Positions 34,646 to 35,521 of a DNA stretch of 64,000 nucleotides are shown one piece after another (the first letter of the stretch is position 1; each line of letters begins with the position of its first letter). The translations under genes were made by a program, and so were the position numbers. Below the pieces are notes generated by a model. That model was not told where the DNA came from and did no database searches. It worked only from the letters and a program-made list of their open reading frames with translations. Origin of the DNA: Anolis carolinensis (lineage: Eukaryota); contig NC_085842.1 of NCBI RefSeq assembly GCF_035594765.1, forward strand, positions 265,593,749 through 265,657,748, read 5' to 3'.

Positions 34646-35521
34646 TGTCAGGACCCAGGCTACAGAGCACCAATAACCATGCGCAGAGGCCAGATTCTAT
34701 CTAATATCTTTATTAAAGGAATATATAAAGTCAAATAAAACAAGTGAAGAATATAGTTCAGAAGTAGACCTTTCAGGAAAGGTCAAATATAGTCCAGGAA
34801 AACAATGTCCAATATGTGATATTAGAGTCCAAAGTTATAATCCAATCACCGAAACACACACTTGCCGAGCAAGTGTGGGGAAATGACAGGGTCCTTTAGT
34901 CCAATGGAGCTTGACAACAAGGCTGGAAACAAACTAGATTCTTGGCAAACAAGACTTGATACGTGGCAACAAGAGGCAAGAAGCAAGAACGAGGTCCGTG
35001 GCGAGGTCCGGGGACAAGGCAGGCTTGGAACTAGAACAAGGTCCGTGGCAAGGTCCTGGAAACAAGGAACTGGAGTAGCGTAGTCCACACACGATCTCAC
35101 TCCTGAAGCTGACGAATTGACTCCGCAAGGATTTCCTTGCGGGTAAACACCTATATAGGATCTTGTTTTCCCGCCAAGGAACACTTTCCCTGGGGAACAA
35201 GAAGCGAAACCCATACTGTGTCCAGATGCATGACTCCTTAAGATTTCCCAAGGGAAACAGGCTTAATCAGCTAATTGTCTGGCAGCGATTCTGGCGCTTC
35301 GGCGATTCGCCTCCCTAGCGCCTCTATCTCGATTATAATTATCCCGGCGAGAGAACGGGGGAGATTTCTGCTCAAGGCTTGTTTGGCTGACTTCTTGTGG
35401 GCAAACATCTTGCAGGTGCAGGGGCTCCAATTCTGGCTGAAACGGTGGGAAACCCAAGTTTTCCTCTTCGTCTGCCACAATAATACTAGGAAGGGGACTA
35501 CATGGCCCATGAGACATCACA
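34646..35521 (-). mobile_element. Solo LTR (876 bp) with 5-bp TSD
   Basis: TG...CA termini, perfect CCTGC TSD (34641-34645/35522-35526), L1 frame resumes exactly after it; homologous to 4732-5596. Confidence 0.92.
35263..35517 (-). CDS. Putative LTR(U3)-encoded 84-aa acidic peptide ending RRSARIAARQLAD
   Basis: ATG at LTR nt 5; 61/84 residues identical to the 5332-5592 peptide, only indel is in-frame (6 nt). Confidence 0.6.
   Translation of the reverse strand: MSHGPCSPLPSIIVADEEENLGFPPFQPELEPLHLQDVCPQEVSQTSLEQKSPPFSRRDNYNRDRGAREANRRSARIAARQLAD

Follow-up and report, generated by a model that had tools for sequence, protein, structure and literature searches.

A lizard chromovirus integrase ends in an LTR-encoded tail with a candidate acidic-patch anchor

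Solo LTRs in the analyzed window

The window, a stretch of 64,000 nucleotides of Anolis carolinensis contig NC_085842.1, contains two solo LTRs of a chromodomain-bearing Ty3/gypsy element, together with an older relative and a decayed element into which one of the two was inserted.

4732..5596, minus strand: solo LTR copy 1, belonging to another subfamily, with TG...CA termini and a 5-bp target duplication (ATAAC)
34014..34645, plus strand: decayed L1-like reverse transcriptase frame in the flank of copy 2, from its translation
34646..35521, minus strand: solo LTR copy 2, its TG...CA termini and 5-bp target duplication (GCAGG) both evident in the sequence
58193..58843, minus strand: older, distantly related LTR relic, from blastn (72% identity over 100 bases, E 1e-9), with an approximate 3' end

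Copies 1 and 2 were 79% identical and fell within a length class of about 870 to 880 bp. Copy 2 lies antisense within the decayed L1-like element and breaks its frame. We take this frame to be that of an L1-like reverse transcriptase on account of the QGCPLS and FADD motifs in its translation; Pfam returned zero matches for 34235-34645. One contig of sequencing run X2 joined across copy 2, and in four of four sequencing runs the contig depth jumped by several orders of magnitude exactly at the copy 2 edges. Such a sharp pile-up is expected for a high-copy family, and the depth does not equate to copy number.

In the relic, a stop as well as a frameshift interrupted the frame that corresponds to the tail described below, the end of which read RCHSTRIAARNAAE; the target duplication was not clear. 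Its N-terminal part, VMPHGPPSP...DHGDEDMRFLPSQQE, still resembled Anolis tails, and STRIAAR was kept at the end. The insertion site of copy 1 is a small hairpin-type repeat element (window 4602-4731 and 5597-5620) with inverted arms at 4602-4660 and 4673-4731, of which more copies lie near 383-509 and 40699-40815. The window also contains tandem arrays at 43738-44467 (period about 147 bases), 49206-49515 (about 70 bases), and 50324-50579 (about 64 bases).

The open frame of the LTR is the end of integrase

Both LTR copies begin with an open reading frame, which starts at the second base of the LTR, covers its first ~260 bases, and encodes 85 to 87 residues.

35263..35520, minus strand: U3-encoded integrase C-terminal tail of copy 2, from translation, 85 residues and a stop
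35281..35304, minus strand: RRSARIAA motif of copy 2, a predicted acidic-patch arginine anchor
5595..5332, minus strand: tail of copy 1, from translation, ending in NRRSLRIAAKQMDD before the stop
5373..5350, minus strand: RRSLRIAA motif of copy 1

The tail of copy 2 consists of an acidic, proline-rich linker (including ADEEEN) followed by a basic end, NRRSARIAARQLAD, and the stop. Retranslation agreed with an earlier note on this DNA, made from the sequence, that the peptides of both copies end in RRS[A/L]RIAA after an acidic, proline-rich half. Translated in all six frames, the window contained R.S.RIAA twice (versus 0 in 40 Markov resamples) and RRS.R[LI] three times (versus 0.25 expected, with one of the three unrelated), counts that are not independent, since the two LTR copies are related.

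When the 85-mer was compared with longer proteins, 4 of 128 candidates matched, all of them from Anolis carolinensis, at 62 to 87% identity and 100% query coverage. Three of these had SH3_Tf2-1 and Chromo domains upstream of the tail, and two of the three also had the integrase core (rve). The tail was found in frame after rve, SH3_Tf2-1, and Chromo among P0001, P0002, P0004, P0095, and P0254, and that of P0005 differed from the copy 2 tail at 4 of 85 residues, as counted by eye. The junction of pol and LTR reads RGLEEGDS/VM[ST]HGPC, wherein the purine-rich codons are the polypurine tract and VM is the start of the LTR; the EGDS/VM junction falls at the LTR start, such that the pol frame runs on into the 3' LTR. 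The full order of pol is PR-RT-RH-IN (zinc finger, core, SH3)-chromodomain, continuing over the polypurine tract into 85 to 97 codons of U3. Pfam confirmed the PR-RT-RH-IN order for P0095, P0254, P0097, and P0225, which carry the tail of the window or, for Podarcis, a related one. Full-length Pol of two clusters, that of P0094 with 94 sequences and that of P0095 with 366, terminated in RRSARIAAKNLAN; 15 sequences of each cluster were inspected, and the clusters also contain sequences of less than full length. The chromodomain (PF00385) at the integrase C-terminus scored above the cut-off; among PDB structures it matched HP1-beta best (E 8e-10), and its aromatic cage positions are occupied by F, W, and F. 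All of these tail-bearing Anolis and Podarcis proteins are gene predictions.

Pfam at E 1 assigned neither window peptide to any family, and a search of the ESM Atlas with the tail gave no usable match. Among 1.84 billion representatives, phmmer found six matches, four of which belonged to the same element family (P0071, P0003, P0091, and P0092), and none of the six was an HMGN-like sequence. Two were set aside: P0090, a repetitive protein, and P0093, which came without an aligned stretch. Membership in the HMGN protein family was rejected, as the window peptides lack HMGN homology and are fused to integrase.

The RRS[A/L]RIAA peptide is the C-terminal tail of the integrase of a lizard chromovirus (Ty3/gypsy), encoded where pol enters the 3' LTR. 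As the end of integrase, the tail would be made only from full-length transcripts, off their 3' LTR, and the copies in the window, being solo LTRs, are inert records of it. The earlier note had instead proposed a free LTR-encoded peptide or transactivator, a reading that found no support: the sequence is a Pol/integrase C-terminus, and it lies upstream of the LTR promoter, the putative elements of which are as follows.

35151..35157, minus strand: TATA-like box, about 105 bases downstream of the tail stop, with a function suggested by its distance from the site of self-priming
35117..35126, minus strand: likely transcript start at the U3/R border, with bases that could pair with the first internal ones behind the LTR
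34709..34714, minus strand: AATAAA, a putative polyadenylation signal

Self-priming by the 5' end of the transcript is known for Tf1/sushi elements, as described in a partly available source (PMC6317226). In two of the four runs, loose ends past the 3' end of the LTR were complementary by eye to 35126..35117 (10 of 10 bases in run X13 and one difference in run X5). X5 and X13 may be RNA runs; a search of sequencing runs for this sequence listed none as RNA. This complementarity fits self-priming of the Tf1/sushi type, which would place the transcript start near 35126. Because the tail stop (35263) is upstream of both the TATA-like box and this start, the LTR promoter would not transcribe the tail. 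For a standalone peptide made from solo or 5' LTRs speak an ATG at codon 2 of the frame and the model P0003, in which the tail serves as the end of a host-derived protein, making read-through possible at single loci. Against it, the TATA-like box follows the end of the frame by about 105 bases and the likely start by about 135, the frame of full-length elements continues directly from pol, and the flank of copy 2 has a stop 12 codons upstream. This explanation, which we consider very improbable, is removed barring chance host read-through, of which P0003 may be one case. Nothing observed here supports the acidic half as an activation domain.

Constraint on the tail and its motif

Across the 86 codons that aligned between copies 1 and 2, dN was 0.153 and dS was 0.691, for a ratio of 0.22 (Fisher p 1.5e-6), an estimate that represents two LTR copies. 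The ratios for the successive thirds of the tail were 0.26, 0.18, and 0.27; such similarity implies that the entire tail is constrained and not the motif alone. The other five reading frames were without a selection signal (p 0.08-0.72), and the noncoding remainder of the LTR had pN/pS values of 0.67 to 0.84 (p 0.05-0.45). With CpG-touching codons removed, the pN/pS of the tail was 0.28 (68 codons, p 8e-5). The tail evolves under purifying selection, and it is a real, selected feature that had been misread as a free peptide. Protein-coding constraint on U3 bears on how the evolution of solo LTRs is read.

Since the frame overlaps U3, the motif might be a by-product of DNA-level constraint on an enhancer, or might have arisen by chance. 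The 103 aligned bases from the stop to the TATA-like box were indeed better conserved than the tail (12% versus 21% different). However, the differences within the tail clustered at synonymous sites in the tail frame only, and the codons of the motif arginines differed between the two copies. The frame-specific dN/dS largely refutes DNA-level constraint, and we give this explanation hardly any weight.

Protein-level conservation was examined in 38 Anolis tails (39 were gathered, and one frameshifted tail without an end was dropped), which are relatives, such that column counts do not represent independent events. The motif columns read R in 37, R in 36, S in 37, A in 21 or L in 17, and R, I, A, and A in all 38, followed by a position with K in 27, R in 10, and G in 1. 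None of the three motif arginines was lysine in any of the 38 tails, though K and R swap freely one residue on. The motif stops 4 to 5 residues short of the C-terminus. Outside this set, the Anolis protein P0071, which is without a chromodomain, has S in place of the last arginine, the predicted anchor, and the Anolis model P0096 is without the tail. Four DNA runs covering 35225-35345 contained seven variants at a level of at least 4%, five of them in the coding part (codon effects derived by hand). Two of the five change motif arginine codons synonymously, two replace residues that flank the motif (N to T on its upstream side and R to K on its downstream side), and one turns the stop from TAA into TAG. 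The A/L change of the fourth position was missing from these variants, which indicates that the variant table under-samples other subfamilies. A further stretch, DEEEN[LM]GF (window 35404-35480), hardly varied among Anolis tails; it may be cut by the protease or serve as a second short interaction motif.

Tails of related chromoviruses

Not all chromoviruses share this kind of tail. RRS.R[LI] was found in the tails of 4 of 117 chromovirus clusters (those of 120 that passed a chromodomain filter), versus 0.15 expected from shuffles. Two of the four were from Anolis and represent the query's own family, one was from Podarcis, and one was from a frog; the fish and fungal elements were without the motif. 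The Podarcis cluster listed 15 members, of which all but 5 end earlier or in another frame. The five proteins that keep the tail all end in RRSARLKA[RK], about 14 residues before the stop, behind an acidic linker with a net charge of -16 in 60 residues, and a GDG/VM-like junction is read through. The chance of the motif in a shuffled tail was 0.00075. A lack of motif conservation, which the earlier note had named as an argument against its own reading, was thus seen in neither Anolis nor Podarcis. Anolis and Podarcis tails had no significant similarity to each other, the best match (E 0.06) being the motif itself, and the shared motif may reflect descent or convergence.

A relative from Rhineura (P0032) had the same acidic-then-basic layout and ended in RGRPVSLRPKR, without RRSxR. 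This ending presumably recalls viral anchors of the xLRxR type and could be an alternative anchor in the same position. A quick tree built from 49 integrase-chromodomain regions grouped the squamate integrases into one clade (SH-aLRT 99), with unresolved branching within it. The combination of an acidic linker and a basic end looks squamate-wide on the strength of three genera, with the HMGN-type motif in two of them. The frog sequence (P0174) has RRSPRL in a basic tail with a shuffle chance of 0.008 and is a weak lead only. Many other amphibian matches were chimeric gene models with host exons behind the chromodomain and hence uninformative on natural tails. LANA-like endings, [LM]R[SP]R, were rejected as a general pattern (4 of 117 tails versus 2.0 expected).

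Fish chromovirus integrases (P0098-P0213) instead have PRxRGRPRRR right behind the chromodomain, a stretch that we take to be AT-hook-like, and RGRP occurred in 22 of 117 tails versus 1.9 expected. Basic, nucleic-acid-binding tails are therefore usual in the chromovirus group, and the basic end of the lizard tail could simply bind DNA or RNA, favoring neither particular sequences nor nucleosomes, for target capture, for holding cDNA ends, or for packaging. Even the yeast nucleosome binder Dot5 is reported to bind free DNA at low salt, in the available part of its description (PMC13347269). Yet the fixed spacing and the fixed S, I, A, and A in Anolis, along with RRSARL in Podarcis, point to a shaped site and not to bulk charge, and we regard an unspecific binder as distinctly unlikely.

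Fungal-type tails that run past a GGVDVRG junction often share YVPPHRR or YIPPHRR amid variable sequence, possibly another short LTR-encoded motif. The carriers were P0145, P0147, P0168, P0178, P0179, P0181, P0183, P0188, P0193, P0195, P0197, P0204, and P0207.

Candidate binding of the nucleosome acidic patch

The lizard motif conforms to an HMGN-like core, RRSxR[LI], with arginines at positions 1, 2, and 5. Cryo-EM has placed RRSAR of HMGN2 and RRSSR of Dsup on the acidic patch, where the fifth arginine of the motif anchors on H2A E61/D90/E92 and a modeled phosphoserine in the motif would repel the patch, as far as the available part of the source describes (PMC12487698). The closest known counterpart is RRSARIAT of yeast Dot5, the nucleosome binding of which is reported to be lost on mutation of R6, R7, or R10 or of the patch (PMC13347269, seen in part). 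The RRSARIAA motif of copy 2 equals Dot5 at 7 of 8 positions and the HMGN core, RRSARLSA, at 6 of 8. The resemblance to the HMGN anchor that the earlier note had pointed out turned out to be stronger than claimed, given conservation at the protein level, a second lizard family, and the Dot5 match.

Judging by these sequence features, we consider it rather likely that the motif on the integrase tail binds the H2A-H2B acidic patch and works beside the chromodomain. The match to Dot5 and the preference for arginine over lysine together make two nucleosome contacts, one by the chromodomain and one by the anchor, the most likely reading. Two points would temper it: a basic motif of eight residues carries little information, and HMGN was already in view when the pattern was picked; and RRSLR, present in 17 of 38 Anolis tails, is a form not covered by the available parts of the Dot5, HMGN2, and Dsup sources.

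The main rival is a nuclear localization signal of integrase or of the pre-integration complex, which could coexist with an anchor. Its hallmarks are a C-terminal position, a net charge of +5 to +7 over the last 30 residues (in five tails), and a loose bipartite spacing, [KR][KR]-x10-13-RRxxR, that fits 26 of 39 Anolis tails; Ty1 integrase likewise is reported to have a C-terminal nuclear targeting signal (PMC2490736, available in part). Import would not, however, call for arginines that are never lysine where K/R exchange is free one residue later, or for the strict S and IAA, and the upstream basic pair reads RH in the full-length cluster representatives P0094 and P0095. The classical consensus patterns of such signals (K[KR]x[KR], strict bipartite, and PY) were found in 0 of 4 tails tested. 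On balance an import signal as the explanation of the basic end is unlikely.

Alternatively, the protease of the element could cleave off the tail, which would then act as a p12-like tether or as a competitor for the acidic patch that weakens silencing. The conserved DEEENLGF stands before a proline in many copies, an arrangement that presumably resembles the aromatic-proline cleavage sites of retroviruses. The residue after F varies, though (P in 18, S in 4, and L in 1 of 23), and DEEENLGF is missing from the Podarcis and Rhineura tails. Pol products are, moreover, made in small amounts. Precedents exist, in the parts of the sources available, in Dot5, which on overexpression disrupts silencing through its motif (PMC13347269), and in p12 of MLV, a cleaved tether (PMC9040877); for the lizard tail, cleavage appears quite improbable.

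A mechanism for the preferred reading, the acidic-patch anchor, can be sketched on the model of Dot5, HMGN2, and Dsup. Provided that the tail is translated and kept on the mature integrase, arginines 1, 2, and 5 would dock on H2A E56/H2B E113, on H2A E64, and on the E61/D90/E92 triad, respectively, and the serine of the motif could act as a phospho-switch. The HP1-like chromodomain, with its aromatic cage intact, would read a methylated H3 tail, and the acidic linker of ~85 residues would let the anchor reach the nucleosome face. Such two-point tethering of the integration complex may promote chromatin capture and target choice. A broader proposal, to which we assign an even chance, is that squamate chromoviruses of the anole and wall-lizard lineages are two-point nucleosome readers that tether the complex to chromatin much as foamy virus Gag and MLV p12 do. 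Theirs would be the first retrotransposon integrase with an acidic-patch anchor, an arrangement that may have aided the large expansion of the family.

A complex prediction that paired the 32 C-terminal residues with H2A-H2B of an invertebrate type (locus L044), made from single sequences, scored 0.01 against a mark of 0.34 and counts neither for nor against binding. AlphaFold 3 is reported to fail on the HMGN2-nucleosome complex as well (PMC12487698, in the part available). A separate observation concerns histone genes: a 911-kb IMG/VR contig (L001:1362-2562) encodes adjacent H2A and H2B, the latter with a long, lysine-rich N-terminus.

Comparison with known systems

With Dot5, HMGN, and Dsup (RRSSRLTS), the lizard motif shares the RRSxR[LI] core, the arginines at positions 1, 2, and 5, and a disordered context; RRSARL of Podarcis is exactly that of the HMGN core. 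The lizard motif differs in that position 4 is L in 17 of 38 copies and in its location on the end of an integrase beside a chromodomain, without homology outside the motif. If the predicted anchor holds, a mobile-element member would join the very short list of HMGN-like motifs in the literature covered (HMGN, Dsup, and Dot5).

In group A of the plant CRM elements, pol runs into the 3' LTR and encodes a conserved, putatively targeting CR motif at the integrase C-terminus, according to the accessible part of one account (PMC3059260). The lizard element likewise has an LTR-encoded integrase C-terminus. In CRM, the CR motif is described as standing in place of the chromodomain (PMC6317226, partly available), whereas the lizard element keeps a type I chromodomain and adds a motif, in another clade and host. 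Membership in the CRM clade was rejected on the presence of the chromodomain and the squamate clade. The partner of the plant CR motif is described as unidentified in the source parts available, and the lizard tail offers a short candidate with known chemistry.

Foamy virus Gag (through its CBS), MLV p12, and KSHV LANA each use a short arginine-anchor peptide to fasten a pre-integration complex or a mobile genome to the acidic patch, and loss of the foamy virus Gag anchor redistributes integration sites, as reported in the available part of PMC9040877. Those tethers belong to infectious viruses and either derive from Gag or hold episomes, whereas the anchor predicted for the lizard element is of the HMGN type and sits on integrase itself. 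If true, this would suggest that retroelements came to acidic-patch tethering via integrase as well as via Gag.

The lizard element has the PR-RT-RH-IN-chromodomain order, the 5-bp duplication, and the TG...CA LTRs of Tf1/sushi (V-clade) vertebrate chromoviruses, and it may self-prime as they do. In contrast, the tails of its fish relatives and of most amphibian relatives examined here are short or basic, and they lack the acidic linker and the terminal RRSxR[LI]. Like the lizard tail, the C-terminal module of Ty1 integrase is, on what was available of its description, a disordered tail with short motifs for nuclear entry and targeting, but Ty1 belongs to the copia superfamily and its module binds RNA polymerase III, not histones. 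To our knowledge, the Ty1 integrase tail is not LTR-encoded.

How vertebrate chromoviruses choose and hold chromatin targets is a poorly tested field. Pol read-through that encodes a targeting tail is known from plant CRM, and what is new here is the probable HMGN-type anchor on an integrase; were the basic end only an import signal, the lizard tail would be an annotation detail. The literature searched yielded no paper that ascribes an HMGN-like motif or an arginine anchor to a retrotransposon integrase, with most subscription journals and supplements lying outside the search. The read-through of the tail may already be noted in Repbase or Dfam. As an element it is an ordinary chromovirus, and public protein sets already contain it in the form of automatic annotations. 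Four RefSeq models (P0005, P0252, P0253, and P0003) are its pol under host gene names, among them calmodulin-lysine N-methyltransferase, PCBD2, and KCNQ5; in P0003, a host-derived N-terminus is fused in frame to the LTR tail.
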